Assembly (NCBI GenBank): GCA_016185635.1
Contig: JACPNF010000077.1
Coordinates: forward strand, 1-43,174
DNA from: Candidatus Woesearchaeota archaeon
Lineage (GTDB): Archaea > Nanobdellota > Nanobdellia > SCGC-AAA011-G17 > JACPIM01
Direction of reading: 5' to 3'
DNA length: 43,174 nt
The translations under genes and the position numbers were made by a program. Position 1 is the stretch's first letter. The number at the start of each line of letters is the position of its first letter. The notes beneath the pieces are model-generated. The model had not been told where the DNA came from. It did not search any database and was given only the letters and a program-made list of their open reading frames with translations. Below are positions 11,234 to 39,217 of this stretch, one piece after another.

Positions 11234-11275
11234 TTTTCCGAGGTTTTCTTTTTCAAAGAAAAGCTCAGGTCTTAC
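11234..11275. repeat. copy R1 (partial) of palindrome-cored repeat family
   Basis: TTTTCCGAGGTTTTCTTTTTC (11234-11254) is identical to 39161-39181. It is followed by the palindrome TTTTCTTT-TTC-AAAGAAAA. Confidence 0.6.
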
Positions 11276-11665
11276 AGTATCTCCAACAGGCGTTAAGTTC
11301 GGGCTCGTCCAGCCCTACTTTGAATATGTTTTTTGGATTAAGGTTTTTTGTTTTCTTGCCTATCGCTTGTTACAGCTTTGTATGGCAAGATTATTTTTAA
11401 TCCAATTAAGCTTAAATTGTTTTTCAGTTATTTAAGCTTTATTGTAATTCATCACTATTCAAGGAATATTTTCGGAAAGTTTGCGATTTCACCGGAAGAT
11501 TTCCGGAATTTATAAAAATATTACGAAAATTAATTACCCTAATTCATCCATATTAAACTTTTGAAAAAAGTTTAATCAAAAATAGATTAAAGAACATGGT
11601 TTTCTTGGGCACTGCTAATAAAAAATGCTTTAAAGACTTTAATAGCAGGGCTTGAAGAAATATGA

Positions 11666-12085
11666 TTATTTTTTATTTTGTTCTTTTTGTATCATTTCGT
11701 TTACTTCATTTGCAAGTTCCTCATTGTGAACACTTGCCTTGATTAATTGTTCTCTTACTTTTTCCATTGTTTTTGTAAGCTCTTCCATTTGGGTTTTTAT
11801 TAGATTACCAGCTTCGCTTAATTCCTTTTCAACTAAAACCCCGTTTCCAACATTCACAAGGACATTTTTATTGTCTAAAAGCCTGCTCGCAACATAAACT
11901 CCAGAGCCAAGAGAAGAAAACATTTCAGGCTCTTTGTTTGAATCCTTTATTTCCATTAAATTATTTTGCAAAGCTGCCAGTTCATTCAGCTGCCTTTGCA
12001 TAAGCATGTATTGCTCCTGGATTTGTTTTATCTGCTGGTTTAACAGCTGAAGTTCTATGTATTTTTTTTGTATTTCTTCTTTCAT
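11666..12085 (-). CDS. pfdA: prefoldin alpha subunit
   Basis: 139 aa: coiled coil, then central SLGSGVYVASRL...VNVGNGVLVEKELSEA, then coiled coil. Its start overlaps the upstream stop by 4 nt. Confidence 0.7.
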   Translation of the reverse strand: MKEEIQKKYIELQLLNQQIKQIQEQYMLMQRQLNELAALQNNLMEIKDSNKEPEMFSSLGSGVYVASRLLDNKNVLVNVGNGVLVEKELSEAGNLIKTQMEELTKTMEKVREQLIKASVHNEELANEVNEMIQKEQNKK

Positions 12086-12822
12086 TTTTTAGATTTCTTT
12101 GTTGTTTTTTTCTTTTCTTTTTTAGCTTGTTCTTTTTTCTTTGGGGTTTCCTTTTTTTCTTCCTTAGTCAAACTTTTCTCATTAGTTTTGTTCAAACTTT
12201 TCTCATTAGTTTTGCTGAAGCTTTTCCCAAAAGCTTCTTGTGATGGAGTATTTCTTTTTTTTGCTGGTTTTTCTTTTGTTGTTTTTTTCGTAGTTCTCTT
12301 TTTCTCAGTAACTCCATAACCAAGTGTAGTTAATTCTTTTTTGACATTTTCAGTGCTTTCATTTTTCTTTATTTTTATTGTCTTGTCTAGTGTTTCTAAA
12401 TGAAAAATATTGCATTTTCTTCTTTTTACATTTCCATCTATAAGAACAAAATTATTTCCTAATATATCAACAACAGCACAGGTTTTTCCAGCCTCTCTTC
12501 CTGCAGTTTTAATACATATCCTTCCAACTTCAAAAGAATATCTCTTTACATCACTGGTTTTTTTTATTATGATTTCTCTGCTGCAGTGACTGCATAAATT
12601 GCCACCATAAGGTCTCTCAACCCTTCTCTCAGTAAAAGATAAGTTTCTAAAAACAGCTGGTCTTTCCCTTGGAATTCCAATTAAAGCTATTCTGCACTTT
12701 CCGCACCTTGTGGACTTTGGTTTTCTTTTTAGGTAATGTATTACTACTCTTCCACCAGGTGTCTTGACCTTTACCCTTCTTAATCTTCTTGTTGCTTGCG
12801 GACTTATTGCCATTTTTATCAA
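12082..12822 (-). CDS. fusion of ribosomal proteins eL34 and eL14 with repeat-derived K/E-rich tail
   Basis: A single uninterrupted 246-aa ORF. The N-part RRLRRVKVKTPGGRVVIHYLKRKPKSTRCGKC...ERPYGGNLCSHC is eL34; residues from about 95, FEVGRICIKTAGREAGKTCAVVDILGNNFVLIDGN..VKRRKCNIFHLE, are eL14. The tail is ...QEAFGKSFSKTNEKSLNKTNEKSL.... Confidence 0.8.
   Translation of the reverse strand: MIKMAISPQATRRLRRVKVKTPGGRVVIHYLKRKPKSTRCGKCRIALIGIPRERPAVFRNLSFTERRVERPYGGNLCSHCSREIIIKKTSDVKRYSFEVGRICIKTAGREAGKTCAVVDILGNNFVLIDGNVKRRKCNIFHLETLDKTIKIKKNESTENVKKELTTLGYGVTEKKRTTKKTTKEKPAKKRNTPSQEAFGKSFSKTNEKSLNKTNEKSLTKEEKKETPKKKEQAKKEKKKTTKKSKK
12168..12250. repeat. copy R2 of repeat family (inside eL34/eL14 tail)
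   Basis: Two 24-nt modules are followed by the perfect palindrome GAAGCTTTT-CCC-AAAAGCTTC (12217-12237). Positions 12181-12226 match 17641-17686 with one mismatch. Confidence 0.8.
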
Positions 12823-12830
12823 ATCTTCTG

Positions 12831-13505
12831 TTACTTTTCTAAACCTCTCCCAAGAGCAAAACCACCCCTACCGTAGTTCCGGTAGCCACTGACACACAAC
12901 CTGCCATCAAAGCCACAGTAAGAATCCAAAGCTGAAACAGTTTTTGTAGGTCTATACACTTTAGCTAAAGTTATTACATAAGAGGCTTTCTTAAGAATAG
13001 AAGCAATTTCTGCAAGTTTTTCAGCTTCTTCTTCTCCTGCTTGGGCTATAACAAATTTATGTCTTGCAAGTTCTACAAGAGTTTGCTCTCCTTGCTTGAA
13101 ATCATTTAATGAAACAAACCTTACCTTTTGGTTTTCTCTTAATATTTTTTCCAAGTCAGGATTATTAATATCTATTTCATCAGCTTTAGTATGTGCGTCA
13201 TTTAAATAAAGACCATCAATTTCAGGAATGCCTATAACCTCAGTGAAAGCATAAAACCGGCTTTCTTTAAGTATTTCTATAAATCTTTCTTTAATTTCTT
13301 CAGAATGTCTACTGTTTTGTTTTAAGATATCATAACCTATTGAAATAGTCTCAGCCATAGTAACTCTTCTTAATCCTGATTGTTCTATTTCGTTTCCAAT
13401 ACTATGATAAGTTCCAGGACCAAAGGGAGGATATTTAAAAGTTAAAGTTCCATCTATAGGCCTTGCTTCCAGTTCTACTCTTTCATTTAAATTTGAGTTT
13501 ACCAT
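12831..13505 (-). CDS. hypothetical protein occupying the slot between DUF106 and eL34
   Basis: 224-aa ORF tightly packed in the operon. The C-terminus (...RLCVSGYRNYGRGGFALGRG) weakly recalls the C-termini of 24415-25248 and 26166-26990. Confidence 0.55.
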   Translation of the reverse strand: MVNSNLNERVELEARPIDGTLTFKYPPFGPGTYHSIGNEIEQSGLRRVTMAETISIGYDILKQNSRHSEEIKERFIEILKESRFYAFTEVIGIPEIDGLYLNDAHTKADEIDINNPDLEKILRENQKVRFVSLNDFKQGEQTLVELARHKFVIAQAGEEEAEKLAEIASILKKASYVITLAKVYRPTKTVSALDSYCGFDGRLCVSGYRNYGRGGFALGRGLEK

Positions 13506-13510
13506 TTTTT

Positions 13511-15370: not shown

Positions 15371-15371
15371 T

Positions 15372-15782: not shown

Positions 15783-15783
15783 C

Positions 15784-16260: not shown

Positions 16261-16261
16261 A

Positions 16262-17613: not shown

Positions 17614-18144
17614 TTATTTCTTAGCTAAGCTTTTTTGTTCATTAGTTTTGCTCAAACTTTTCTCATTAGTTTTGCTGAAGCTTTTCTCAAAAGGCTTCTT
17701 TTTAAAAAGCTTATTTTCCTCCAAAAATAATTTTATGTGCCTCTTGCTTCTGAAAACATTTCCTTTTATCATTGTGTAAATTTCCCTGTTAGTCTGGGTT
17801 GTGATTAATTTCTTTTCTTTTAATAATCTTAAAAACCCTCTTTGTACCCGTACTTTCTGGATCCATCTTCTTTTCCTGGTTAGTCTTGCATGTCTTGTAC
17901 CTTTTCTTGACCCAGGCCCCTTTCTTTTTCCTTTTCTTTTCTGCAACCTTATTTTATTAGCCCTGTAAGAAGATATTCCGTGTTTCTGTTTTAATGAAAT
18001 TGCACCCATACCAATAAGCCTTCTTATGTCTGATTTTGTTATTGCCTCTTTTATTTCATTTAATCTTGCAACATCAAACTTAACTCTGTCTAATCCGCAC
18101 TTGAGAACCTTAGCTGCAATCCTTTTTTGTGTTTTCAGTTTCAT
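17614..18144 (-). CDS. rpl19e: 50S ribosomal protein eL19 with repeat-derived tail
   Basis: MKLKTQKRIAAKVLKCGLDRVKFD...; the tail is KKKPFEKSFSKTNEKSLSKTNEQKSLAKK. Confidence 0.9.
   Translation of the reverse strand: MKLKTQKRIAAKVLKCGLDRVKFDVARLNEIKEAITKSDIRRLIGMGAISLKQKHGISSYRANKIRLQKRKGKRKGPGSRKGTRHARLTRKRRWIQKVRVQRGFLRLLKEKKLITTQTNREIYTMIKGNVFRSKRHIKLFLEENKLFKKKPFEKSFSKTNEKSLSKTNEQKSLAKK
17637..17700. repeat. copy R3 of repeat family (inside eL19 tail)
   Basis: A 24-nt module followed by GAAGCTTTT-CTC-AAAAGGCTTC (17677-17698). Confidence 0.8.
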
Positions 18145-19261: not shown

Positions 19262-19332
19262 TTAGTTTTTTCTCGTTAGTTTTGTTCAAACTTTTCTCAA
19301 AAGTTTGTGATGGAGCTTTTTTTAAGAGCTTC
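19262..19332. repeat. copy R4 of repeat family (rps8-rpl6 spacer)
   Basis: TTAGTTTTGTTCAAACTTTTCTCA is identical to part of R2. It contains the palindrome AAACTTTT-CTC-AAAAGTTT and shares GTGATGGAG with R2. Confidence 0.7.
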
Positions 19333-19334
19333 CT

Positions 19335-21139: not shown

Positions 21140-21613
21140 TTATTTTTTTCCTGAAGGCTTTTCTAAGTTTTTGCCGAAGCTTTTTTCAAAAATGCTTCTT
21201 TCTGAATTTTTCCCTGAAGGATTTTTTTCAAAAAGGCTTCTTTCTATTGCCTTTTTCCTTTCTTTGTCTTTTAAATCTAATTCTTTTATCATTAAATTTG
21301 ACGGATGTATTGGATAAAATGCTTTTGTGCCATCTTTCTTTAGCATTTCAGCTCCCTCAACATAAACTTTTATTTTTTTATAGCTTACTGAACTTACATT
21401 CCCTGTTTTTCCCTTGAACTGTCCTCTCATTATCTTTACGCTGTCTCCTTTTCTAACTGGAAAATTTCTTATCTTGTATTTTTTCATAAGTTCCTCAGAC
21501 AAATGGCTTGACATGAACTTGTTTCTCGTGTGCAAAGGAGCATTATACACATATTTCCTTTGTTTTCTTGGCTGCTTGCTTGCCTTCCATTTATTTGAAA
21601 ATTTAGTTCTCAT
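21140..21613 (-). CDS. rpl24: 50S ribosomal protein uL24 with repeat-derived tail
   Basis: KQPRKQRKYVYNAPLHTRNKFMSSHLS..L..KY..RNFPVRKGDSVKIMRGQFKGKTG; the tail is ERSLFEKNPSGKNSERSIFEKSFGKNLEKPSGKK. Confidence 0.9.
   Translation of the reverse strand: MRTKFSNKWKASKQPRKQRKYVYNAPLHTRNKFMSSHLSEELMKKYKIRNFPVRKGDSVKIMRGQFKGKTGNVSSVSYKKIKVYVEGAEMLKKDGTKAFYPIHPSNLMIKELDLKDKERKKAIERSLFEKNPSGKNSERSIFEKSFGKNLEKPSGKK
21143..21243. repeat. copy R5 of repeat family (two tandem degenerate units in uL24 tail)
   Basis: TTTTTTTCCTGAAGGCTTTTCTAAG...GAAGCTTTTTTCAAAAATGCTTC followed by TTTTTCCCTGAAGGATTTTTTTCAAAAAGGCTTC. Confidence 0.7.
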
Positions 21614-22038
21614 TCAGCACTTCCTTTTAGGATTTTTTCACATTCTTCTACACCTTTATCGTAAGTTTCCACAATATAATCCTTTAAAGCATCTAAGTGG
21701 GGATAAAGTTGGATATTAAATAATATGGGAAAAAAGTTTTCCGGATCTAATAAAGCGAAATATACTCTATCTTTTTGTACTTTTGCCCCAGCACCTAATA
21801 TATAACCTGTTTTGACAAGGTCTCCTTCTCCTGCAGTAGTTTTAGCCATACCCAAAAGTTCTTTCAGTTTACAAAGCTCAGCAAAAAAAGTTTCAAACCT
21901 GCAAGCCCCTAATCTTTCTTTTACAGTTTCAAGAGGAATATTTTTAGCTGACAAAAAACTTTCCAAGTCTTTTAATTCATCTTCTCTTCCTTTGCCAAAT
22001 CTTAAATCAATTACCATTTTATACAAGTATATCTGCAA
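21610..22038 (-). CDS. hypothetical protein inserted between rpl14 and rpl24
   Basis: 142-aa ORF (alternative start MVIDL at 22017). Its stop overlaps the rpl24 start by 4 nt and its start overlaps the rpl14 end. No motif recognised. Confidence 0.55.
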   Translation of the reverse strand: MQIYLYKMVIDLRFGKGREDELKDLESFLSAKNIPLETVKERLGACRFETFFAELCKLKELLGMAKTTAGEGDLVKTGYILGAGAKVQKDRVYFALLDPENFFPILFNIQLYPHLDALKDYIVETYDKGVEECEKILKGSAE

Positions 22039-23546: not shown

Positions 23547-24418
23547 TCTTCTTTAGCCTTATCCTCATTAGTTTCTTGTATTTCTTCTTTTACAAGTTCT
23601 TGTATTTCTTCTTTTGCAGTTTCTTTTTCCACTTCTGTTTCTTTTGCTTCTTCACTTGGTGCAGGTTCTTTTGCTTCGGCTTTCTTTTTTCTTTTTTTAG
23701 TTTCCTTTTTTTCAGAGTCTTTTGGTGCTTCCACTTCTAAGGAAAGCTCTGCTGCAATTTTCTCTGCTTCTTCTTTTACCTCAACTTTTTTTCCTGTTTC
23801 TTTTTCAATTAGGTTCATTTCATTATCTAAAATTAATATCTTGTCTGGCAGAACAATATCAGGAGTCATTATGCTGACCTTGATGCCTATGGTTCCAGAC
23901 TTTAAGTTGGCAGTAGATACAGCCCTCTTGACTTCATTTTGTGAGATATATCCTGATTTTTTCAAATGCCCGGCTGAAAATCTCCATGATCTTGCCCTTG
24001 CGCTTGGAACTTTTCCAGATATAACAATTTCAGCACCCAATGCTCCGCTGTCAAGAATCTGCTGTAAAGTTTTATACCCTACTGATTTAAATCTTTTTGA
24101 TCCGAACCTTACTAATGTGGAAGATATTCTGTCAGCAACATAATTTGCGTCAATCATTGGATTAATTAATTCTCCAATCTCTATCTGTGGATTTTCAACA
24201 TTAAATCTCTTGTTCAAAACAGTAGTTAATTGCTTGATATTTTCTCCTTTCCTTCCTACAACAAGGCCTGGTCTTGTCGTGTATATAATTACCTTTTCAC
24301 CCAAAGGAGTTCTTTGTATTTCAGTATGAGAATATCCAGTACCAACCAGCTTTGACTTTATGTATTCCTGAATCTGGTATTCCTTTACTTTCTGGTTTAC
24401 AAACTGCCTTTCAATCAT
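23543..24418 (-). CDS. rps3: 30S ribosomal protein uS3 with K/E-rich C-terminal extension of about 85 aa
   Basis: MIERQFVNQKVKEYQIQEYIKSKL...RTPLGEKVIIYTTRPGLVVGRKGENI (KH domain). The tail contains the KEEIQE tandem. Confidence 0.95.
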   Translation of the reverse strand: MIERQFVNQKVKEYQIQEYIKSKLVGTGYSHTEIQRTPLGEKVIIYTTRPGLVVGRKGENIKQLTTVLNKRFNVENPQIEIGELINPMIDANYVADRISSTLVRFGSKRFKSVGYKTLQQILDSGALGAEIVISGKVPSARARSWRFSAGHLKKSGYISQNEVKRAVSTANLKSGTIGIKVSIMTPDIVLPDKILILDNEMNLIEKETGKKVEVKEEAEKIAAELSLEVEAPKDSEKKETKKRKKKAEAKEPAPSEEAKETEVEKETAKEEIQELVKEEIQETNEDKAKEE

Positions 24419-25248
24419 CTTGTTTTCTCCAAAATTTTTGCATGGCGTACCCCGAGGTCAGCATTCAAGTATGAAGGATTGCCACTACAAAGCAGATAAA
24501 CCCCACCAACATTAACAACAAACCCAACAGCTCTTCCTTCTTTTGGTCTCCAATAATATAAATTTCCTTTTTTCACATTTTTTCTTGGCAGTCTTTGAGG
24601 CGTAGGATTATTTAAAAAATCATCTAAATTTATTCCTGGAAGCCTGTCTTCCATTAATGTATCTGAACCTAAAGGTTCAGTAACCTTAACTAATCCTCCT
24701 TTGGAATTAAACCTAGAACAAGTAACTTGAAGATTTCTCTTGCTGTCTAAAGAATACATGTCTTCAAACCATTCTGCTCTCCAAGGACTTTTTGGTTTTG
24801 CAACATCATTAAATTCCATTTCTAATCTTTTTTTATTTATTTTTTTTCCGTTTCCATTGTAAACTTTTATTTTTCCTTCTGAGCCATCCCTTAATGTTCT
24901 TAAAAATTCAACACCAATATAAAGAGGAAGAGTAAAACCTCCAAAACCTGAATTAATTGCTATTGCCTGTTCATGGTTTATAGTTCCAATAAATCCTTGC
25001 TCATTATCTCTTAAGTTTAAGCCCAATTCCTCTTGAATTGTACTGATTAAAGGAGAAAAACACAATCTCCTTAATCCAACCCCTATATCAACTTGATGGG
25101 AATCATTTGCTGGTAAAAGAACATAATTTTCTGGAGCTTCTGCTTCTTTTATTTCTTCATATTCTCTCTTTAGGTTTTTTAATTTTGTAGAAATCCACTT
25201 ATGTACTCTTGGATTTTCTTCAGATAATCTATCTAAATCTATGTTCAT
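24415..25248 (-). CDS. hypothetical protein, paralog 1 of ribosomal-operon insert family
   Basis: 277-aa ORF between rpl22 and rps3 with 4-nt overlaps at both ends. Its C-terminal half aligns with 26166-26990 (TLMEDR..GI..DD...NP....LPRKNVK.G.LYYW.P.EG...GF......L.C.GNP....ADLGVR.AKIL). Confidence 0.7.
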   Translation of the reverse strand: MNIDLDRLSEENPRVHKWISTKLKNLKREYEEIKEAEAPENYVLLPANDSHQVDIGVGLRRLCFSPLISTIQEELGLNLRDNEQGFIGTINHEQAIAINSGFGGFTLPLYIGVEFLRTLRDGSEGKIKVYNGNGKKINKKRLEMEFNDVAKPKSPWRAEWFEDMYSLDSKRNLQVTCSRFNSKGGLVKVTEPLGSDTLMEDRLPGINLDDFLNNPTPQRLPRKNVKKGNLYYWRPKEGRAVGFVVNVGGVYLLCSGNPSYLNADLGVRHAKILEKTR

Positions 25249-25766
25249 TTTTTAATTTCATTCTCCTCAGTTTTTGCAGGAACATTTTCTTTGTTAGCTT
25301 TCTCAGTTTTGTTGAAGCTCTTCTCACCAGTTTTTTCCTGAAGGTTTTTTTTCAAAAAAGCTTCCTTTGCAAAAATTTCTACGCAGCTTCTTTTCATTAC
25401 TCTCCCCCTGTGCCTGCTGTAATGCCATGCTTTTGGACCTTTGTTTGCAATTACTTTGTCAATAACTAATCCTTCCGCATTTAATCCAATGTTTTTTGCA
25501 TTTGCTTCAAGTGTATTCAACAAGCCTACAAAATACTTTGAAGCTTTTACAGGATAAAACCCAGGTCCAATTTTTCCTTTTTTATGTCCTCTTTTGTGCT
25601 TGAATCTCTTTAAAGGTATGACAAATTTTTGGTCCATTACAGATGTTAGTATGCTTTTTGCTTTTGCAACATCTTTTCCCTTGATAAAGCTGCATATTTC
25701 AATTGCGTGCTTTGTCGAAATAGGCATGTCGTTTCCCTTCACTCTTGCAATTGTTTTATCTGTCAT
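25245..25766 (-). CDS. rpl22: 50S ribosomal protein uL22 with repeat-derived tail
   Basis: ARVKGNDMPISTKHAIEICSFIKGKDVAKAKSIL...; the tail is KEAFLKKNLQEKTGEKSFNKTEKANKEN.... Confidence 0.9.
   Translation of the reverse strand: MTDKTIARVKGNDMPISTKHAIEICSFIKGKDVAKAKSILTSVMDQKFVIPLKRFKHKRGHKKGKIGPGFYPVKASKYFVGLLNTLEANAKNIGLNAEGLVIDKVIANKGPKAWHYSRHRGRVMKRSCVEIFAKEAFLKKNLQEKTGEKSFNKTEKANKENVPAKTEENEIKK
25293..25366. repeat. copy R6 of repeat family (inside uL22 tail)
   Basis: TCAGTTTTGTTGAAGCTCTTCTC...TTTTTTCCTGAAGGTTTTTTTTCAAAAAAGCTTCC. Confidence 0.65.
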
Positions 25767-26165: not shown

Positions 26166-26990
26166 TTAATCCAAATCTATCCCTCTCCCCATCTCAAAAA
26201 TATCTTGTAGATAGCTTCCACCTATTTTTCTTATTCTTTCTTTCTTTTCTTCTTCAGATATTTTTGGTTTTTCTTCTGATTTTATCTCTTTTTGGTGTTT
26301 TATTTGATAAATAGTTTCCCTGTCTAAAATTTTTGCCCGACGTACCCCGAGGTCAGCACCCGAGCCCAAAGGATTGCCATCGCAGACCAGGTCAGCCCTG
26401 AAAGCATCAGCACCAAACCCAGCGACTTTTCCTTCTCTTGGTTTCCAATAATATAACCTTCCTTCTTTCACATTTTTTCTTGGCAAACCACTTTGATTTG
26501 GGTTTTTTATCCAATCATCGAAATCTATTCCCGAAATTCTGTCTTCCATTAAAGTATTTTCATCTAAACCTATTAACACTTCTATTAATTTTCCTGAAGA
26601 ATCAAATTGATGAGTACTCACCCCATACAAATGCCCAGTAATTATTGAATATTGATGATCAAGTCTTGTTCCTCTCCAAGGATTTTTTAATGCTATTAAT
26701 TCATCCAAAAATCTCTTTTTTAGTTCATTTGAAATTCTGTTTCCCTTGCCATTATAAACAACTTCTTCTGATTTTAATAATCCAATAGCTTCTACAAGTT
26801 CATTTGGATTTAACATAAAAGATCTTTCTTGCTTTAATGCTTCTTTTGTTTGAGGGTGTTTTTTATCTCTATGTGATAATTCCATTATTTCTATCCCCAA
26901 GGTAGGGTGGTTATCCCAGTAGTTTCCACTAGTTATTTCTGGCAAAATGATATAATTTTCCAGATTCACTTCTTGAATTAAATTAGTCAT
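26166..26990 (-). CDS. hypothetical protein, paralog 2 of ribosomal-operon insert family
   Basis: 274-aa ORF between rpl2 and rps19 with 1-nt spacers. It is paralogous to 24415-25248, and the 18-nt string CGTACCCCGAGGTCAGCA (encoding ADLGVR) is shared. Confidence 0.7.
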   Translation of the reverse strand: MTNLIQEVNLENYIILPEITSGNYWDNHPTLGIEIMELSHRDKKHPQTKEALKQERSFMLNPNELVEAIGLLKSEEVVYNGKGNRISNELKKRFLDELIALKNPWRGTRLDHQYSIITGHLYGVSTHQFDSSGKLIEVLIGLDENTLMEDRISGIDFDDWIKNPNQSGLPRKNVKEGRLYYWKPREGKVAGFGADAFRADLVCDGNPLGSGADLGVRRAKILDRETIYQIKHQKEIKSEEKPKISEEEKKERIRKIGGSYLQDIFEMGRGIDLD

Positions 26991-27968: not shown

Positions 27969-28874
27969 TTACTTCTTTGCCTTCATGATTTTTTTAATTT
28001 TCTCTTCTTTCTTAGTTTCTTTTGTATTATCTTTTTCTAAAAGCTTCTTTTCTTCATGTACAACATGTTCTGTAAACAAATTTTTATTTTTGATTAATTC
28101 AACAGCGTCTTTTGTGAAAAAAGTCAGTCTTCCAGGCATTCCTCCAGGAGCTAATAAATCAACATTAAGGTTGTTTGCTAAGACTGCCTCTGTTCCTTGA
28201 ATAGAGCTTAAAATTTTTGATAATACCTTATTACTTTTTCCTAAAACAAATAAAGGCCCTTTTTTGTAATTGTATCTTCTTCCCCTGTTTTTTCCTTTTC
28301 CTGCCCTTACTTTTTTAATCTTTATCCTGTTAATTTCTTCTTCAAACCCTAATATTATTAACAGTTTGTAAAGGTCTTTTGTTTTCTTTAAATCATAAAA
28401 GTCCTCATCAAATATAATAGGCACTTCCTTGAAAAAATGTCCCCTTTCCTTAACAAAATTTTCATTTACAGAAGCACTCAAGGCGCTTCTTATTGCTTTC
28501 CTGTTTTCTTTTATATTTATTTTCTGGCTAAGTATTTTTGTAGCCTTAGGAGGATGAGCTTTTCTTCCCTTATACATGCCAGGAGCATAAGCACCTACCC
28601 ATCCAAACTGCCTTCCTCTTTTCCACAAGGTTTTTCTTGGTACTCTTGACATTGCTCTTCCATAAGCTGTCTTGTACTTTCTTCTTCTTCTTGATAATTT
28701 TGCAGAAACCCTCTCACCAGCATGAGGCATTGTACCATACCTTTGTCGTTTATTAGCTCTTATAGCTAAAAAAGCCCTATGAATTAAATCATTCCTCACA
28801 GGCTCGTCAAACTGGTTGGGCAGTTCAACAGTTCCTTTCTTTGTTCCATTTGAAGAATATAAGCTTGCTTTCAT
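27969..28874 (-). CDS. rpl4: 50S ribosomal protein uL4 with K/E-rich C-terminal extension
   Basis: GTVELPNQFDEPVRNDLIHRAFLAIRANKRQRYG..., second gene after rpl3. Confidence 0.9.
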   Translation of the reverse strand: MKASLYSSNGTKKGTVELPNQFDEPVRNDLIHRAFLAIRANKRQRYGTMPHAGERVSAKLSRRRRKYKTAYGRAMSRVPRKTLWKRGRQFGWVGAYAPGMYKGRKAHPPKATKILSQKINIKENRKAIRSALSASVNENFVKERGHFFKEVPIIFDEDFYDLKKTKDLYKLLIILGFEEEINRIKIKKVRAGKGKNRGRRYNYKKGPLFVLGKSNKVLSKILSSIQGTEAVLANNLNVDLLAPGGMPGRLTFFTKDAVELIKNKNLFTEHVVHEEKKLLEKDNTKETKKEEKIKKIMKAKK

Positions 28875-29850: not shown

Positions 29851-29914
29851 GGATTTTCTTTTTATAAGCCTTTTCCGTCGTTTTTCCCTGAAGGCTTTTC
29901 CTAAAAGGCTTCTT
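29851..29914. repeat. copy R7 of repeat family (upstream of rpl3)
   Basis: The 34-mer TTTTTCCCTGAAGGCTTTTCCTAAAAGGCTTCTT at 29881-29914 is identical to 34528-34561. It is preceded by GGATTTTCTTTTT, as in R9. Confidence 0.8.
29861..29867 (-). promoter_or_regulatory. candidate TATA box of the ribosomal operon
   Basis: The minus strand reads AAAGGCTTATAAAAAG, with the box centred about 28 nt upstream of the rpl3 ATG (29836). This is leaderless-type geometry. Confidence 0.4.
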
Positions 29915-30030
29915 CCTAGAATTAGCGACTGATTATATACGTAGAGGGTAAAGTTTTAAAGAAAATTTTCATTTATAAACATATCGTTTTATCCATTAAT
30001 CTTAAAAATATAATAAAAAAAGTATTTCTT

Positions 30031-32995: not shown

Positions 32996-33826
32996 ATGTT
33001 CAGAAAGTACGGGTTTTTAGGGATATTATTGATATTATTAGTTGAGATAAATTTCTTTTACAGATATGTTGATATGGGGACTTTGTACTTTCCTTTAATC
33101 TGGTTTGGCTATATTTTTTTAGTAGATGCTTTGGTTTACAAATTGAGTAGAAATTCTTTGATATCCAACAGGCCTTACCAGTTTTTAGGGTTAATTATAT
33201 TAAGTGCCTTGTTCTGGTGGACATTTGAACTAATAAACTTTGCAGCAAGAAATTGGGAATATAAAAGCCTAGGAACAATATTCCCATATGGAATTGCAGT
33301 AATAATAAAAACACTTTCATTCTCAACAGTTCTCCCTGCTTTTTTTGAAACAGTTGAGCTAATTAAGTCAGTTCATTTGTTTGATAATAAAAAATTAAAA
33401 AAGAAGCACAATATTACAAAAAGGTTTATCCATGTAATGTTTGGAATAGGAATAATTTCTTTTATACTGCCAGTAGTATATCCAAATTATTTTTACCCGT
33501 TAATCTGGAGTACTTTTTTCTTTTTATTAGACCCAATAAATTATTTGCACAAGCAGCCGTCAATAATACAGCACTTAAAGGACAGAAAGCTGGCAATACC
33601 ATTTTCATTGTTATTGGCAGGAATTATTTTAGGATTTTTTTGGGAATTCTGGAATTACTGGGCTACAACAAAATGGTATTATAATATTCCTTTTGTAGGT
33701 TTCTTTAAAATATTTGAAATGCCAATTTTAGGTTATCTGGGTTACTTTCCCTTCTCATTTGAGCTGTATGCAATGTACTGGTTTACAAGAAGTTTGTTAT
33801 TGAAAAAAGAAAAGCAGTTAATCTAA
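32996..33826 (+). CDS. polytopic integral membrane protein, unknown function
   Basis: 276 aa with multiple hydrophobic helices, W/F/Y-rich. Confidence 0.5.
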   Translation: MFRKYGFLGILLILLVEINFFYRYVDMGTLYFPLIWFGYIFLVDALVYKLSRNSLISNRPYQFLGLIILSALFWWTFELINFAARNWEYKSLGTIFPYGIAVIIKTLSFSTVLPAFFETVELIKSVHLFDNKKLKKKHNITKRFIHVMFGIGIISFILPVVYPNYFYPLIWSTFFFLLDPINYLHKQPSIIQHLKDRKLAIPFSLLLAGIILGFFWEFWNYWATTKWYYNIPFVGFFKIFEMPILGYLGYFPFSFELYAMYWFTRSLLLKKEKQLI

Positions 33827-34521
33827 GCTTCAAAATTTATTTCTTTTTCAATTATTTTTCCATCAATGTTTAACATTCTTTTTATTTTTCCTTTCCTTAA
33901 GGCATTTTCTCTTGCCATTGCAGGATTATCCATGTCTTTATCGCTTACAATTAGTTCATTAATGGTAAAAGTATGGTTTATTTTTAATTCAGAAAAATTT
34001 TCATTTACATCAAAAGCAAATTCCTTGATAAAATTTAAGTCCTTAGCTGTAAAAGTGCAGAAATCTGCTTTAACTTCATTGTCTTTTCCAGGCTTTGCAG
34101 CCTTAGGAGATTTAACTTTTACTTTTAAAGTTCCATAATCTGTTGCAAAGCTCAATAAAAATAAGGCATCTGAAAATTTATTGAAAATATTGTTTAATGA
34201 ATCTTTGTCTATTTCATTATCAATCAAAAATGTCTTTACTCCTGCAAACTGCTTCATCTGAACATCAAAATTTAATTCTTTTCTTATATCTTTTTTAGTA
34301 ATTATTCCACCGGAAACTTTTGCCTTGTCTTTAACAGTATTTGCTAAAAATCTTGCAAAATCTTCTGCAAACTCAAAGCTGGTTTTTACTTTTACAGAAC
34401 TTTTTGATTTTTTTACCTCAACAACAGCCCTGTTTTCATAAACTCCCTTTCCAAATCTCTTGAACTGCTTATGTACTAAATTGTCGGTTTTTCCTTCAAA
34501 TATTTTTTTTATGAAATTCAT
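33823..34521 (-). CDS. hypothetical protein
   Basis: 232-aa ORF. Its first 12 coding nt plus 4 upstream nt are duplicated at 34560-34575. Confidence 0.5.
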   Translation of the reverse strand: MNFIKKIFEGKTDNLVHKQFKRFGKGVYENRAVVEVKKSKSSVKVKTSFEFAEDFARFLANTVKDKAKVSGGIITKKDIRKELNFDVQMKQFAGVKTFLIDNEIDKDSLNNIFNKFSDALFLLSFATDYGTLKVKVKSPKAAKPGKDNEVKADFCTFTAKDLNFIKEFAFDVNENFSELKINHTFTINELIVSDKDMDNPAMARENALRKGKIKRMLNIDGKIIEKEINFEA

Positions 34522-34524
34522 TTT

Positions 34525-34561
34525 TTATTTTTCCCTGAAGGCTTTTCCTAAAAGGCTTCTT
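34525..34561. repeat. copy R8 of repeat family, flanked by 16-bp direct repeats
   Basis: The 34-mer at 34528-34561 is identical to R7. The flanking TTATGAAATTCATTTT occurs at 34509-34524 and 34560-34575. Confidence 0.85.
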
Positions 34562-34573
34562 ATGAAATTCATT

Positions 34574-34807
34574 TTAGGAAGAGTTAGTCTGGTTATTTTT
34601 TGGAAGCCATTCTTTTTTTGTAACCTCTCCTGTAATGTCTTTTACATTAGTAAAAACGCTGTAAACCCAACCAGAATAAACCTTGGCAAAACTTATTAAA
34701 TCATCCTTGTTCTTTAGATTATAATTGTTATACGTCTTGACAAAATAAGCCCCTATTACTAACAGGATTAATATTAAGACAACAAGTCTGCTTATTAATT
34801 TAGGCAT
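34574..34807 (-). CDS. small N-terminally membrane-anchored protein
   Basis: 77 aa starting MPKLISRLVVLILILLVIGAYF... Confidence 0.4.
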   Translation of the reverse strand: MPKLISRLVVLILILLVIGAYFVKTYNNYNLKNKDDLISFAKVYSGWVYSVFTNVKDITGEVTKKEWLPKNNQTNSS

Positions 34808-35004: not shown

Positions 35005-35043
35005 TACGTCTACATAGAAAACTTTATAAATAATGTAGACGTA
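35005..35043 (+). promoter_or_regulatory. 11-bp perfect inverted repeat bracketing a TATA box upstream of the MNT/HepT pair
   Basis: TACGTCTACAT (35005-35015) and ATGTAGACGTA (35033-35043) enclose CTTTATAAATA. The ATG at 35052 is about 25 nt downstream of the box. Confidence 0.45.
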
Positions 35044-35048
35044 TAAAA

Positions 35049-35878: not shown

Positions 35879-35974
35879 AGGAAAATTAGCCAATTTGGTA
35901 GGGTTACTGTGGAAGCATTTTTATGATTTCTTGAAAAGTTCAGCTTTTTAAATAGGTAGATATTGAATTTTTAC

Positions 35975-37189
35975 ATGGACCTAAACAATTTAAAGTTAAA
36001 TTCGAATTTAATAAAAGCCATAAAGGAAATGGGTTATACTGAATTCACAGAAATCCAGAATAAATGTATTCCAGCTATTCTAGAAGGAAAAGACATATTT
36101 GGGCAGTCAAAAACAGGATCTGGCAAAACAGCTGCTTTTGGATTGCCTATTTTACAAAAAATAAAGCCGGGTGAGGGACTTCAAGTCTTAATTTTGACTC
36201 CGACAAGAGAATTATGCGTGCAGGTTACCCAAGTATTAAATAATTTTGGAAAATATTCTAAAATTAAGGCTGTAAGCATTTATGGGGGAGTTGGTATTGA
36301 ACCTCAAATTAGAGACATCAAAAAAGCAGATATTGTCATCGGAACTCCTGGAAGAATACAGGATCACCTGGGCAGAAAAACAATTTCATTTCAAAATATA
36401 AAATATTTAGTCCTGGATGAAGCTGATAGAATGTTTGATATAGGTTTTATCAATGTTGTAGAAAGAATAATAGCACATACGCCAAAAGAGAAGCAGACGT
36501 TATTATTCAGTGCAACTTTATCAGAAAGCGTAAATCATATTTTAAAAAAGCACCTTAAAAATCCAATAATTATCAAAAGCTCAGAATATGTTGAGCCAGA
36601 AAAATTAAAACAGATTTACTATAGCCTAGAATATTATGAGAAATTTTCTTTGCTGGTTCATTTATTAAAAAAAGAAACTTTTGGGATAGCCTTGGTTTTT
36701 TGTGCAACACGAAGAGAAGTTGATTTATTAACAAGAAACCTGAGAAAACAAGGAATTAAAGTAATGGGAATTCATGGGGGATTAACTCAGAACAGAAGAC
36801 AGCAGGCTTTAAATCAATTGAAAAGTGAAAATATTAGAGTTTTAGTTGCAACTGATGTTGCTGCAAGGGGTTTGGATATTCCAAATATTACTCACGTGTA
36901 TAACTATGATGTTCCGAAAACTTCTGACGAATATATTCATAGGATAGGAAGGACTGCGAGAGCTGGAGAAATGGGAGAAGCTATTACTCTCTTAATTGAA
37001 AAAGATTATTCCAATTTTGATAATGTACTAAGCAACAGAAGAATCCAAATTAAAAAAGAAGAAGTCCCTAAATTTAAAAAAGTTTATTTTGAAAGAAATA
37101 TGGAAAGAAGAAGACCTTTTCAGAGAGTTTCATTTCCAGGAAAAAAATATGGGCAAAGAGAAGAAAAAAGATATCATTATAGAAGATAG
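35975..37189 (+). CDS. DEAD-box ATP-dependent RNA helicase
   Basis: Q-motif FTEIQ, GQSKTGSGKT, PTRELC, VLDEADRM, SAT, HRIGRTARAG. The ATG at 35975 is preferred over the TTG at 35963. Confidence 0.9.
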   Translation: MDLNNLKLNSNLIKAIKEMGYTEFTEIQNKCIPAILEGKDIFGQSKTGSGKTAAFGLPILQKIKPGEGLQVLILTPTRELCVQVTQVLNNFGKYSKIKAVSIYGGVGIEPQIRDIKKADIVIGTPGRIQDHLGRKTISFQNIKYLVLDEADRMFDIGFINVVERIIAHTPKEKQTLLFSATLSESVNHILKKHLKNPIIIKSSEYVEPEKLKQIYYSLEYYEKFSLLVHLLKKETFGIALVFCATRREVDLLTRNLRKQGIKVMGIHGGLTQNRRQQALNQLKSENIRVLVATDVAARGLDIPNITHVYNYDVPKTSDEYIHRIGRTARAGEMGEAITLLIEKDYSNFDNVLSNRRIQIKKEEVPKFKKVYFERNMERRRPFQRVSFPGKKYGQREEKRYHYRR

Positions 37190-37282
37190 CTAAAAATATA
37201 CTTTATAGTTATGCTGGGTAGTCAAACTTTTTGATTATTCCGCCGTCAGTATTGTTCTTTAAAAAGAAAAAAAGAAAAAAAA

Positions 37283-37483
37283 TTACTGGTTTTTGTTGTT
37301 TATTCCAAGATAATTATGCAGCAAGCACCAACCGATTAGACTTTCCAAAAGTGCTATCCATCCAACAGCGTGAACTATCCAATTTGCCCATCCCAAACTA
37401 AAGTGTGGTGCATAAGAACTTAGCCACCAGACTCCAAGCAAAAATCGAAAAATCCTGTCTAATTTTCCCAAATTTTGTTTCAT
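37283..37483 (-). CDS. DUF2892 (YgaP-like) small membrane protein
   Basis: NLGKLDRIFRFLLG... with two TM helices. Confidence 0.55.
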   Translation of the reverse strand: MKQNLGKLDRIFRFLLGVWWLSSYAPHFSLGWANWIVHAVGWIALLESLIGWCLLHNYLGINNKNQ

Positions 37484-37494
37484 GATTTCACCTC

Positions 37495-37782
37495 TTAATT
37501 TTTTTCAATATCAAAACGTATCTTGAATTTCTTTCTCGTGAAATGCTTGTAATAACCGTCAATTAAATCCATCCCAGCATAACCTCCTAAAAAGCTAAGC
37601 TGTTTTGCAAATCCAAAAAGTATTCCAGAAAAAGCTCCAGAAGCAATAACTAATATTGCGTAAAACCCGAATTTTTTAGAGTCAATTTTCTTTTTTGACT
37701 GGTATGATTTTATTAAATCAACTAACAGCCTGACTACCCCTCCTAATATCCCAAAAACAACAGCTATAGTTAATTCACTCAT
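37495..37782 (-). CDS. small membrane protein, tandem paralog
   Basis: 95 aa sharing G.LGG.VR.L and GY.G.D blocks with 37779-38051. Confidence 0.5.
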   Translation of the reverse strand: MSELTIAVVFGILGGVVRLLVDLIKSYQSKKKIDSKKFGFYAILVIASGAFSGILFGFAKQLSFLGGYAGMDLIDGYYKHFTRKKFKIRFDIEKN

Positions 37783-38051
37783 TTTCTTATGAAAACACTC
37801 CCTTCTAAAGTAGCTTTAAAGACATTTTCCAAGATATCAGTTCCAACATATCCAGTAAGAGCAGCTATGTTATATTGTGTATTAAACACGCTTCCGAGAA
37901 TACCTCCAATAGCTCCCGCAATAATAATTGTGGTTAAAAAGTAACCAATGCTGATAGTCTTGTTTTTGGCAACAGCCTTCATTATTCCATATAAAGCCCT
38001 GACTAATCCTCCTAAAGCTCCTACCAAAATAAAAGCAATCACCTCTTGCAT
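37779..38051 (-). CDS. small membrane protein, tandem paralog
   Basis: 90 aa; 4-nt overlap with the downstream paralog. Confidence 0.5.
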   Translation of the reverse strand: MQEVIAFILVGALGGLVRALYGIMKAVAKNKTISIGYFLTTIIIAGAIGGILGSVFNTQYNIAALTGYVGTDILENVFKATLEGSVFIRK

Positions 38052-38129
38052 TATTTTGCTTAAGAGTTTGTAATTTAATAAGTTTTTGATATAACAATAC
38101 TTAAAAACAGGTTTACATAGATAATATAG

Positions 38130-38786
38130 GTGGGGACTTTAGAAGATATATTAATTGATACAGGTTGCCTATTTATACCTAAATTAGACAAGGTAGCTTT
38201 CAAAATTCAAACTAATTATAGGAAGTGTTCAAATTTTTTTCAGGGGAGAAAAAGAAGATTAGGTGAAGTAAAAGCATTTAATTTGCAGGATTTAGCACAA
38301 GTACTTGATATAGTGCAAAAGAACCAGGAAGCTGTTTCCAATTTAAATGCTCTTTTCATAGACTCTACTCTTTCTGGTGAAGATGGAGTTTATAAAACAG
38401 AAAGACTGCTTGAAAGAGGCCTTGGATCATTTTTGTTGAATAAGTTCTGTATTAATAATAAAGCAAGAGAATCTATTTTTTCATGTGTTAGCCATGAAGC
38501 CTTTGGAAATGATAAAGAAGAAAAAGAAGGAGAAAAGCATTACTTTGATTTTTTAAAGGGAAAAAGATATCAAAGTACAGGGAAATCACGAAGTTTTGTG
38601 ATACCTTGCTATGAAGCTTTTATAGAATTCTTTTATTCTTTAATAGGCAAGAAGTACCAAGATAAAGGCAAGCCGCGAAGTTTTGTATTTCCAGAGTATG
38701 AAGCTTTTGTTGAATTCACGGTAAAAGACCCTGAAAAATTTGTAATAGATGGAAGATATATCCTTCAAAATCACAATAAACCTTAA
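38130..38786 (+). CDS. hypothetical protein with internal 29-aa duplication
   Basis: 218 aa with a GTG start. GKRYQSTGKSRSFVIPCYEAFIEF is repeated as GKKYQDKGKPRSFVFPEYEAFVEF. Confidence 0.45.
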   Translation: MGTLEDILIDTGCLFIPKLDKVAFKIQTNYRKCSNFFQGRKRRLGEVKAFNLQDLAQVLDIVQKNQEAVSNLNALFIDSTLSGEDGVYKTERLLERGLGSFLLNKFCINNKARESIFSCVSHEAFGNDKEEKEGEKHYFDFLKGKRYQSTGKSRSFVIPCYEAFIEFFYSLIGKKYQDKGKPRSFVFPEYEAFVEFTVKDPEKFVIDGRYILQNHNKP

Positions 38787-38810
38787 AAATCTTGAAAATA
38801 TAGCAAAGAT

Positions 38811-39143
38811 ATGCTTGAAGACGCCCAGTTGGTAGTTTGCAGGAAATGCAGGAAGAAAGTTCATCCTTCTGAATTAAAAAGAGAAAGTCCAAACAGTAGC
38901 TCAATGGTTTGCAATTCTTGTTTAGGCAGAATGAAGGAAGTAAGCAGCACAATTGAAGAATTAAAAAGCAATATTTCAAATTCAAGCGAGGAAAAAAAGA
39001 GATATTACTGTGAGGAATGCGGCTTTAAATTTACAAGAACTGGCAGGCTTATTAACAATACATGCCCTTATTGTTCTAAAGAAAGTGTAAAGGTAGTAGA
39101 AATTAATTTGATAAAAGAAATAAAAGACAATAGTTTTGAATAA
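38811..39143 (+). CDS. double zinc-ribbon protein
   Basis: CRKC...CNSC and CEEC...CPYC pairs. Confidence 0.5.
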   Translation: MLEDAQLVVCRKCRKKVHPSELKRESPNSSSMVCNSCLGRMKEVSSTIEELKSNISNSSEEKKRYYCEECGFKFTRTGRLINNTCPYCSKESVKVVEINLIKEIKDNSFE

Positions 39144-39160
39144 AATAATTCTTTAATCTA

Positions 39161-39217
39161 TTTTCCGAGGTTTTCTTTTTCGTTTTTTCCCTGAAGGCTT
39201 TTTCTAAAAGGCTTCTT
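39161..39217. repeat. copy R9 of repeat family (abuts stop codon of 39216-39644)
   Basis: TTTTCCGAGGTTTTCTTTTTC followed by a 34-mer 33/34 identical to R7/R8. Its last two nt are part of the TAA stop (39216-39218) of the minus-strand gene. Confidence 0.8.

Follow-up and report, generated by a model that had tools for sequence, protein, structure and literature searches.

Short palindromic repeats in ribosomal-protein tails, gene spacers and tRNA introns of probable DPANN archaea

Why does one short palindromic sequence recur, almost unchanged, at the ends of unrelated ribosomal-protein genes and in the gaps between them? The question is raised by contig JACPNF010000077.1 of the Candidatus Woesearchaeota assembly GCA_016185635.1, of which the whole analysed stretch of 43,174 nucleotides (nt) is here called the window. 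A 34-mer, reading AAGAAGCCTTTTAGGAAAAGCCTTCAGGGAAAAA in gene sense, occurs exactly at 29881-29914 and 34528-34561 and with 33 of 34 positions identical at 39184-39217, with 0 matches expected from shuffled sequences; the third copy overlaps the stop codon of the open reading frame (ORF) 39216..39644 by two nt. These copies are as described in an initial annotation of the window, which had proposed a family of nine or more palindrome-cored copies that mark gene ends, are translated as the C-terminal tails of ribosomal proteins, and represent either a mobile or recombining element, akin to repetitive extragenic palindromes (REPs) or miniature transposable elements with inverted repeats (MITEs), or a hairpin signal. 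From the evidence below, the units are probably lineage-specific selfish or neutral mini-repeats that spread by copy-insertion and survive at sites where they are tolerated.

A profile built from the window copies was scanned against both strands of the window. It gave eight matches with E<=4e-6 and a ninth, in uL24 (21145-21165), with E=1e-3; all nine lie in gene sense, on the minus strand, and plus-strand matches are only weak palindromic mirror images (Table 1). Together with remnants, one of which lies at 11201-19, they bear out the predicted number of copies. Each unit is about 27-35 nt long: a purine-rich arm of 5-6 nt is followed by a T-run, a loop of 3 nt and an A-run, after which come the complementary arm and a tail rich in A (CAGCAAAA or CAGGGAAAAA); the palindrome has arms of 9-10 base pairs (bp). 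The perfect 9+9 palindrome at 12217-12237, the exact identity of the 21-mer 39161-39181 to 11234-11254, and the 46-nt match with exactly one mismatch between the eL34-KOW and eL19 tails (12181-12226 and 17641-17686) were all confirmed, as were the host genes of the coding copies, whose Pfam matches are L34e plus KOW, L19e, L26/L24 and L22. Two statements needed correction. Not every copy has the same orientation, as a diverged plus-strand unit, TAAACTTTTGAAAAAAGTTTAATCAAAA, lies at 11555-11581; and while copies do lie at gene 3' ends, the one in eL34-KOW is not terminal (approximately 40 further K-rich codons follow it).

Insertion and nucleotide-level conservation

The 16-mer AAAATGAATTTCATAA stands on both sides of the 34528 copy and includes the start codon of a conserved gene of 232 amino acids (aa). 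In three orthologous loci with 85-86% protein identity (L253, L254 and L255; L-numbers denote fetched contig loci) the site is empty, reading ...CTTCTTAACATGAATTTCATAAAAAAAATATTTG, and the stop codon of a 77-aa ORF falls 1 nt ahead of the ATG. The window sequence is longer by exactly 51 nt, of which 35 belong to the element and 16 to a duplication of the target, and this pair of filled and empty sites shows the copy at 34525-34559 to be an insertion. Following insertion, the first ATG starts a 15-codon mini-ORF whose TAA precedes the real ATG by three nt, so that the chain of stops and starts is kept. A unit of another subtype, TTAAACTTTTAGAAAAAGTTTAATCAAAA, is found in sense orientation approximately 30 nt before the ATG of the closest relative of the 232-aa gene (90% identity; L252 639-665), a locus that lacks the 77-aa ORF upstream. 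Here the same gene start has been colonised a second time, independently.

Duplications that abut the element occur independently at five further loci (Table 1). When left and right flanks were paired across different loci, 3 of 591 pairs reached at least 16 nt. An A-run opens every one of the six duplications, abutting the element's A-rich tail, and 2-5 nt of each 5' junction match the element's usual AAGAAG flank (microhomology). DDE transposases leave target duplications of fixed length, and IS200/IS605 elements or those of REP-associated tyrosine transposases (RAYTs) leave none. The variable duplication length and the microhomology at both joins therefore speak against a transposase of fixed stagger and favour copying by template switch or target priming. 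An apparent 19-nt target duplication at L114 was not counted, as it is a 51-nt tandem coding repeat like that in L164.

The family is conserved at the nucleotide level, not as a protein motif. Reading frame was compared for 22 distinct coding copies from the window and related loci: the left arm is in frame 0 in 8 cases, in frame 1 in 9 and in frame 2 in 5, and the encoded peptides differ with the frame (EAFGKSF, KKPFEKSF, RSLFEK/RSLLGKAFRE, EAFWKKPSGK). Within the window, unit DNA is translated as QEAFGKSFSK in eL34-KOW, KKPFEKSFSK in eL19 and RSLFEK...RSIFEKSFGK...EKPSGKK in uL24, and the intergenic copies contain a stop codon in one frame (GAA GCC TTT TAG). A protein-motif reading was rejected, as all three frames are used and both non-coding and tRNA-intron copies exist. 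The tails are also lineage-specific, as the initial annotation had suggested: ordinary uL24 is 126-130 residues long and tailless, and a tail with one to three units is present only in the closest relatives (92, 86 and 74% identity). The claim that the repeat is repeatedly translated as ribosomal-protein tails likewise stands in the ortholog comparison, distant relatives having no such tails.

It could be argued that these tails are ordinary K/E-rich low-complexity extensions whose nucleotide similarity comes from composition and codon bias; long K/E-rich tails that have nothing to do with the repeat are indeed present in uS3, eL32, uL4 and eL34, and the genome is approximately 32% GC with a purine-rich coding strand. 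The chance that this is correct is practically nil. Exact 34-mers in non-coding DNA (0 expected), 46 nt with one mismatch common to two unrelated genes, the use of three reading frames, units in tRNA introns, and a demonstrated insertion with target duplication already refute it.

A degenerate pattern scan of metagenome contigs found at least 120 loci. Among the matches listed, low-GC DPANN-like contigs carry both the 'GCC' subtype of the window and a perfect-palindrome 'GC' subtype. The unit forms the intron body in tRNA-Glu, tRNA-Pro and tRNA-His (predicted by ARAGORN); deleting the candidate intron and repeating the ARAGORN prediction recovered tRNAs for 2 of 12 candidates, L147 and L156 only, and the copies in L140, L215, L237, L227 and L123 were assigned to tRNA introns by inspection only, several of them at non-canonical intron positions. 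In these pre-tRNAs, manual pairing forms the splicing motif from exon and intron-end sequences, with the unit as an internal stem. A self-contained bulge-helix-bulge intron was rejected, as the window copies fold to a simple hairpin and the motif lies outside the unit in the tRNAs (by manual pairing, with no dedicated motif scanner).

In a hot-spring lineage (GC 0.38-0.47), many prepilin-like proteins (...AQSAMEYLMTYGWAILI) have leaders consisting of 1-4 tandem 27-nt units of differing arm types. This prepilin-like family occupies approximately 40 hot-spring metagenome loci in the range L138-L250 (e.g., L167 277-1287). Its leader peptides come from in-frame units (KTFRKSFIK / KKLLGKASAK / ETFRESFIK / KPLRKASAK), and paralogues differ in the number and order of these units.

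Comparison with close relatives reveals turnover. In two sister lineages, L002-L005 and L006-L009, the gene-sense element is present at the orthologous uL24 tail and in the rpl3 leader, the latter with two nested units in L002 and a degenerate element in L006. The L002 and L006 lineages also carry it at the uL4 tail (twice), in the EMC3-eL34 spacer and at the uL2-uS19 junction, where the window has none or a remnant; two better copies occupy the position of the window's uL4 remnant in L002. The uS8-uL6 spacer is 1 nt in L006, holds one 28-nt unit in L003-L005 and two tandem units in L002, and holds degenerate units in the window. eL19 is tailless in L006 and has one 24-nt module fewer in L002 than in the window, and the eL34 tail of L003 has a single degenerate module. 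Both tails have thus gained units in the window lineage, and the near-identity of their window copies is therefore due to recent copying or gene conversion. The uL24 tail has one unit in L010 and L006, a unit with a degenerate partial repeat in L002, and none in more distant relatives; the three-unit tail of the window resembles the single L010 unit with an in-frame expansion of 63 nt placed within it. No copy was found in the 20 kb of L257, a more distant relative (73% identity).

Orientation, copying and the question of a signal

Orientation was tallied at 104 distinct sites in 74 low-GC fetched loci (533 kb), among the matches listed; this is a sample of loci and not a whole genome. Inside ORFs, 34 sites are sense and 7 antisense, with four of the seven in doubtful ORFs of 86-141 aa. 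Between co-directional genes, 27 are sense and 3 antisense: two of these three are sense to a tRNA, and the other is the plus-strand unit that follows the operon in the window. The informative sites overall number 61 sense versus at most 10 antisense, and orientation relative to genes is non-random, as the initial annotation had expected. Where a spacer lies between convergent genes, the unit adjoins the stop codon of whichever gene it is sense to. When reversed, the unit reads TTTTTCCCTGAAGGCTTTTCC..., with T-runs and a hairpin, and has stop or hydrophobic codons in two of three frames; T-runs with a hairpin resemble an archaeal termination signal. The coding strand is purine-rich (on the opposite strand, GC skew is -0.17 to -0.28 and AT skew approximately -0.03 to -0.35, negative throughout the operon). 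We infer that the bias results from purifying selection and from a requirement that purine-rich microhomology be available on the coding strand. Strand specificity linked to replication is a possible alternative cause.

Under the copy-insertion reading, the insertion with target duplication, the nucleotide-level conservation across frames, the lineage specificity, the orientation bias and the tandem variation described above would have a common explanation. New copies would arise by copy-insertion that duplicates a variable target stretch, existing copies would expand and contract in tandem, and dispersed copies would be homogenised by copying between sites. In a compact genome, units would survive only where extra RNA or protein is tolerated: they would be found in the C-terminal tails of ribosomal proteins, in spacers and leaders, in tRNA introns and in cleaved prepilin leaders because extra sequence is harmless there. 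Tail copies would be translated in the frame in which they landed. Units in reverse orientation would be purged on account of their terminator-like T-runs and hairpin and of the hydrophobic or stop codons that they place in transcripts, and the purine-rich ends of the element would find microhomology on the purine-rich coding strand only. As to copying itself, template switches guided by microhomology may take place while DNA is replicated or repaired, and the hairpin possibly promotes them. This mechanism, template switching or microhomology-mediated copying, is put forward tentatively, as one that is possible rather than probable.

The orientation bias could also be a product of single-strand transposition on the lagging strand, if the units were non-autonomous transposons (minimal MITE, REP or palindrome-associated transposable element [PATE]-like) whose hairpin is recognised in trans by a transposase or a Y1 enzyme (HUH, RAYT/TnpA-like). 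Such elements would be expected to have a palindromic core with co-varying arms, resembling terminal inverted repeats or an HUH hairpin, with a conserved tail adjoining it, and to show filled and empty sites, strict orientation bias and near-identical copies within a genome, all of which are seen. We nevertheless consider them unlikely: the flanking duplications range from approximately 9 to 69 nt, instead of being fixed or absent; inverted pairs (REPIN/BIME) are absent, and no transposase gene accompanies the units in the window or in the loci examined; the operon's scattered orphan ORFs (described below) have 11 homologues (10 besides the protein itself) and no known fold; and 27-35 nt is far below the approximately 100-150 bp of the prokaryotic MITE-type elements compared. 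The orphan ORFs were rejected as a mobilising enzyme, having no family matches, with the family of the 277-aa protein too rare for a repeat widespread in DPANN. Thus, of the proposed mobile or recombining REP/MITE-like element, the mobile, copied and recombining part holds (empty site, 16-nt duplication, variation in unit number) and strict membership of either class does not.

A third form of spread would be akin to that of short interspersed nuclear elements (SINEs), in which a nicked A/T-run of the target primes reverse transcription of a transcript carrying the hairpin and A-tail. It would fit the A-run that begins all six duplications at the element's A-rich 3' tail, the variable duplication lengths, and the fact that copies are essentially sense only and lie in mRNAs, leaders and tRNA introns. 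We find it quite improbable. No reverse transcriptase was seen in the window or loci, retroposition alone predicts no sense orientation relative to the target gene, and the tandem changes and nested units point to DNA-level slippage; furthermore, A-runs precede nearly every start codon (TAAAATG), so the signature may reflect the sites. Target-primed retroposition of the SINE-like kind is not known in Archaea. A broader version, in which the units are the first SINE-like or reverse-splicing-like mobile mini-elements of Archaea and an RNA of approximately 30 nt, made up of hairpin and A-tail, is copied into DNA that is transcribed, by way of an RNA intermediate or of template switching coupled to transcription, is also improbable. 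If true, it would explain the sense-only orientation, the A-run-primed variable duplications and the presence in tRNA introns, and would imply continual seeding of tRNA-intron bodies, leader peptides and ribosomal-protein extensions in DPANN.

Alternatively, the repeat may be primarily a cis-acting RNA or DNA signal, for processing or stabilisation, translational coupling or re-initiation, or as the site of a ribosomal-protein-operon regulator, with the coding tails secondary. Gene junctions and the rpl3 leader are enriched in copies, the copies are in sense orientation, and the uL24 tail and rpl3 leader element are kept in lineages approximately 45% diverged at synonymous sites. The lone reverse unit lies at the operon end, where a T-rich hairpin could terminate transcription. 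The arms co-vary as well: across subtypes, the pairs GAAGC/GCTTC, GAAAC/GTTTC, AAAAC/GTTTT and CAAAC/GTTTG occur 117, 36, 21 and 8 times, and mixed pairs at most 5 times each.

The folding data point the other way. The three identical copies fold with z-scores of 0.7, -0.09 and -0.22, no better than shuffles, and a C.C mismatch (GAAGCC...GCCTTC) is fixed in the window's most common subtype, whose folding energy is -5 to -6 kcal/mol; scores for the perfect palindromes reach z = -1.8. By a manual tally of pair counts, G.T and A.C mismatches are equally frequent (8 versus 8), and there is therefore no RNA-specific wobble signature. The covariation is as likely to come from processes at the DNA level, for instance quasi-palindrome correction or recognition of both arms, as from selection on RNA. 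No Rfam 15 family matched at gathering score, the only RNAs detected in the window and 13 loci being tRNA and 5S rRNA, and no copy was called terminator-like in 29-40 kb. An intrinsic terminator has a G+C-rich hairpin followed by a T-run; the sense-orientation hairpin is A/U-rich and followed by A-runs. A stable RNA hairpin or terminator was thus rejected, as was the supply of a Shine-Dalgarno sequence by AGGG/AGGA in the tail, no Shine-Dalgarno use being seen upstream.

A signal of the operon is also hard to reconcile with close relatives that differ in the positions of their copies, with a fresh insertion between two unrelated genes whose empty site is intact in relatives, and with copies in tRNA introns and cleaved leader peptides, where such a signal would be needless. 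We regard a primary signal as distinctly unlikely. The hairpin-signal alternative of the initial annotation is accordingly weak, given the fixed C.C mismatch and folding scores, and the 'marking' of gene ends that it proposed is better explained by where insertions survive in a very compact genome than by a signal function.

Several observations weigh against the selfish or neutral mini-repeats that we favour. The co-varying arms mean that something keeps each unit self-complementary. No mobilising enzyme or donor was identified in the window or fetched loci, and the copying mechanism put forward is deduced from the junctions of six independent events only. Orientation is confounded with replication direction, no contig having copies on both strands beside genes on both strands. 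Lastly, the uL24-tail unit is approximately 84% identical between lineages (manual count) versus 55-60% third-position identity. This conservation above synonymous sites could fit purifying selection on a function, or homogenisation from other copies, and is the main point favouring a function.

If copy-insertion is confirmed, highly reduced archaeal genomes host actively spreading repeats of approximately 30 nt, and ribosomal proteins can owe their lineage-specific extensions to inserted selfish DNA instead of to selection on the protein. Protein tails, leader peptides, operon spacers and the bodies of tRNA introns could then draw on one family for raw material. Its variable duplications, its joins at A-runs and microhomology and its strict sense orientation would point to propagation other than classical transposition. 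In practice, the family can confound gene calling (through false N-terminal extensions and mini-ORFs), tRNA detection, and the ribosomal-protein marker alignments used for DPANN phylogeny.

The operon, its neighbours and other genomes

Table 1. Repeat units, accessory modules and flanking duplications in the window and in fetched loci
Feature	Position or locus	Strand	Profile match	Context
GCC-type unit AAGAAGCCTTTTAGGAAAAGCCTTCAGGGAAAAA	29881..29914	-	29882-29914	5' leader of rpl3 operon, 46 nt upstream of rpl3 ATG
Recently inserted 35-nt unit GAAGCCTTTTAGGAAAAGCCTTCAGGGAAAAATAA	34525..34559	-	34528-34561	between 77-aa ORF and conserved 232-aa gene
Left copy of 16-nt target duplication AAAATGAATTTCATAA	34560..34575	-		its ATG opens 15-codon mini-ORF through element
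Right copy of 16-nt target duplication	34509..34524	-		holds real start codon of gene 33823..34521
GCC-type unit, 33/34 identical	39184..39217	-	39185-39217	begins at stop codon of ORF 39216..39644; convergent spacer
Accessory module ACGAAAAAGAAAACCTCGGAAAATAG after unit	39158..39183	-		21 nt identical to 11234-11254
uL22 C-terminal tail, degenerate unit plus second module, translated KEAFLKKNLQEKTGEKSFNKTEK	25293..25366	-	25332-25365	
uL24 C-terminal tail, three units	21143..21243	-	21208-21242, 21169-21199, 21145-21165	
uS8-uL6 spacer built of units: perfect palindrome CAAACTTTTGAGAAAAGTTTG plus AACAAAA (19280-19306); degenerate unit (19312-19334)	19262..19334	-		
eL19 C-terminal tail, unit plus two 24-nt modules, translated KKPFEKSFSKTNEKSLSKTNE	17637..17700	-	17670-17700	
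eL34-KOW tail, perfect 9+9 palindrome unit plus two 24-nt modules	12168..12250	-	12210-12238	
Accessory modules GAGCTTTTCTTTGAAAAAGAAAACCTCGGAAAAGAAAAC ... GAGAAAGTTTCACCAAAAAC	11201..11275	-		ORF-free region downstream of operon
Diverged unit AAACTTTTGAAAAAAGTTTAATCAAAA, opposite orientation	11555..11581	+		~85 nt downstream of prefoldin stop
Probable decayed remnant GAAGCTTTTAGAAAAAG in uL4 tail	28031..28047	-		weak, E=0.15
Flanking duplication, 20 nt	L244/L181			
Flanking duplication, 14 nt	L157			
Flanking duplication, 16 nt	L230			48-nt in-frame insert mid 576-aa ORF
Flanking duplication, ~9-12 nt	L177			
Flanking duplication, 65-69 nt	L132			covers promoter and first 19 nt of tRNA-Gly gene

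The window is AT-rich (approximately 32% GC). Its archaeal ribosomal-protein operon runs on the minus strand from 29836 to 11666 (uL3, uL4, uL23, uL2 ... SecY, EMC3-like, eL34-KOW, prefoldin). The best homologues of the window proteins are labelled as Woesearchaeota, Pacearchaeota or Nanoarchaeota metagenome-assembled genomes (MAGs), and the source organism is therefore a DPANN archaeon (Woese-/Nanoarchaeota-like). Genes are tightly packed from stop to start (TAAAATG or ATGA), and monocistronic genes have a TATA-like box 25-30 nt 5' of the ATG. A Shine-Dalgarno motif was not evident in the upstream regions inspected, the genes being coupled as TAAAATG or leaderless.

The TATA-like box of rpl3 lies approximately 90-135 nt 5' of the ATG. 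A leader block, CTTTACCCTCTACGTA.A..ATCAGTCGCTAATTCTAG, is near-identical between window 29915-29975 and L002 1560-1608 and sits upstream of the repeat in the rpl3 region. Unlike most genes in the window, the rpl3 operon probably has a long leader, which might have a regulatory role. eL34 and KOW (eL14-like) are fused in a single ORF at 12082-12822 with an apparent TTG start, a fusion shared by L003 (228 aa) and L006 (247 aa).

Downstream of the operon, a 718-nt stretch (10948-11665) has no ORF of at least 60 aa. It holds locally G+C-rich self-complementary segments (GGGCTGGACGAGCCC; GGCTGGGAGGAGGGC) as well as repeat modules, and its sole Rfam hint is a sub-threshold match to HgcC at 11083-11160 (20.7 bits, E=0.02); it may be an unannotated RNA gene. 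The diverged unit within this stretch is a T-rich hairpin when read on the operon strand. Accessory modules of the ACGAAAAAGAAAACCTCGGAAAATAG type also follow the unit in L162, L178, L183 and L189.

Four orphan ORFs are interspersed between the ribosomal-protein genes on the minus strand: 26166-26990 (274 aa), 24415-25248 (277 aa), 21610-22038 (142 aa) and 12831-13505 (224 aa). None has a Pfam, NCBIfam or PHROG match. The 274-aa and 277-aa proteins are paralogues, with 77-78% nt identity over two blocks of 163 and 69 nt. The 277-aa protein has 11 matches in 5.8 billion proteins, its own sequence included (10 others), and its confident AlphaFold model (pLDDT 87.6) has no fold match in the PDB. 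Orphan ORFs occupy other junctions in relatives (in L002, after uL3, uL4, uL2 and eL32), and the EMC3-eL34 junction holds a repeat unit in L003 versus the 224-aa orphan in the window.

Elsewhere in the window, an 87-nt tandem duplication (71% identity) lies at 38543-38716 within ORF 38130..38786, and the minus-strand neighbours 2399..2869 and 3427..3945, likely paralogues, are 73% identical at their 3' ends (2392-2472 versus 3420-3500).

Similar sequences are found in other genomes. In L164 (844-1047) and L114 (33-64), four exact 51-nt tandem repeats (17 aa, GSLLEKAFREKKKEATK) form the N-terminus of a 444-aa ORF that, judged by eye from a GS...D.D motif, may be a CCA-adding-type nucleotidyltransferase; the 51-nt period of the L164 repeats equals the insertion length at window 34509-34575. 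A scan of a genome collection was dominated by a core-sharing repeat of Acetobacteraceae (Komagataeibacter, Novacetimonas and Acetobacter, approximately 60% GC) that is unrelated to the window family. This repeat, with many copies in L012-L131 (e.g., L012 3145, L015 2347), is an AT-rich nested palindrome of approximately 85 nt, AAAAGTTTTTGGGTG-CCGCCTTTTTTCAAAAAGGCGG-CGTCTTCT-GAAGCTTTTTGAAAAAAGCTTC-ACCAAAAACTT, and its inner hairpin and tail are near-identical to some DPANN units (24 nt identical to L101 3428-3457), a likeness that may come from convergence or from shared constraint. Five Thermococcus MAGs have one CTGAAGCTTTTGGAAAAAGCTTCACCAAAAG copy each, with conserved flanks (L029 5274-5299, L046 3507-3526, L069 294-314, L092 6400-6425 and L109 1110-1135); none is in a convincing ORF, and the L029 copy is approximately 0.4 kb from a tRNA-5S rRNA cluster. 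There was no evidence for a viral vehicle for the window subtype: viral contigs gave seven matches, in two sequence groups with the same unit architecture.

Comparison with known systems

No description of this repeat family was found in the literature searched, which yielded analogues only: Rickettsia palindromic elements (RPEs), PARCELs and tRNA-intron transposition. Assignment of the family to REPs, MITEs, RPEs, bulge-helix-bulge introns, terminators, CRISPR or an Rfam family is contradicted in each case by at least one of the defining features tested.

REPs are extragenic, typically occur in both orientations or as inverted pairs (BIME/REPIN), make no target duplication and are linked to RAYTs. 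Like REP/REPIN sequences, the window family is an imperfect palindrome of 20-40 nt next to a short conserved flank and has numerous copies, located at the ends of genes and in the spacers of operons (at least 9 in the window, 104 sites in the loci). In contrast, 34 of the 104 sites are inside ORFs, in sense and translated; the sense bias is 61 versus at most 10; arrays are direct tandems, not inverted pairs; and duplications of variable length are present. No RAYT (Y1 HUH) gene was noticed among the Pfam-annotated genes of the window and fetched loci. With respect to MITEs and their terminal inverted repeats, the inverted-repeat arms make up nearly the whole unit, with the 3' tail outside them. 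The unit is 27-35 nt, versus about 50-500 bp for MITEs, and its duplications (approximately 9-12, 14, 16, 16, 20 and 65-69 nt) differ from the fixed, family-specific length of that class. Duplications of variable length and an A-rich 3' tail are, by contrast, likenesses to SINE retroposons. Unlike a CRISPR array, the copies are dispersed, and the tandem array of L164 (51-nt period) repeats the 'spacer' too and lies in an ORF.

The transposing tRNA introns of Thermoproteales, said to have been described by Fujishima et al. in 2010, reportedly have similar sequences in introns of different tRNA genes and positions. As in that system, copying between transcribed sites in sense orientation is implied here. 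Those introns are whole bulge-helix-bulge introns confined to tRNAs, whereas our unit is the inner part of an intron, appears by manual pairing to have no motif of its own, and is also found in mRNAs and spacers; no splicing motif was found in the mRNA and spacer copies.

PARCELs are tandem intragenic repeats with DNA dyad symmetry, dispersed among unrelated ORFs; they are 25-residue (75-nt) protein-level domains defined by protein HMM (hidden Markov model) in bacteria and eukaryotic microbes (PMC2996958). Palindromic tandem coding repeats dispersed among unrelated ORFs are thus common to both systems. The window unit differs in encoding 8-11 residues, in its unconserved frame and in its many non-coding copies.

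RPEs are palindromic repeats of approximately 150 bp that insert in unrelated protein genes without destroying them and are translated, and that also occur in non-coding DNA (PMC10969869). Our units are likewise in frame in unrelated ORFs and translated (the eL34-KOW, eL19, uL24 and uL22 tails; the 48-nt mid-ORF insert of L230). RPEs are approximately 100-150 bp long, have one defined peptide frame and belong to a bacterial obligate intracellular parasite; the units described here are 27-35 nt, use three frames, lie mostly at protein termini, form tandem arrays with variable duplications, and are hosted by DPANN. Within the Archaea, the MJRE of Methanocaldococcus jannaschii, attributed to Suyama, Lathe and Bork in 2005, are reportedly palindromic and mostly extragenic, with a few in coding regions that are not disrupted. 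On this description, they resemble our units as archaeal palindromic repeats that in part lie within undisrupted coding regions, and differ in sequence family and lineage and in having no reported tRNA-intron copies, three-frame translation or target duplications.

In behaviour, then, the closest known systems are the Rickettsia palindromic elements, bacterial REPs and the M. jannaschii MJRE. Among repeats of this gene-colonising kind, the present family appears to be an unusually small and strictly oriented palindrome, and probably represents a previously undescribed sequence family.

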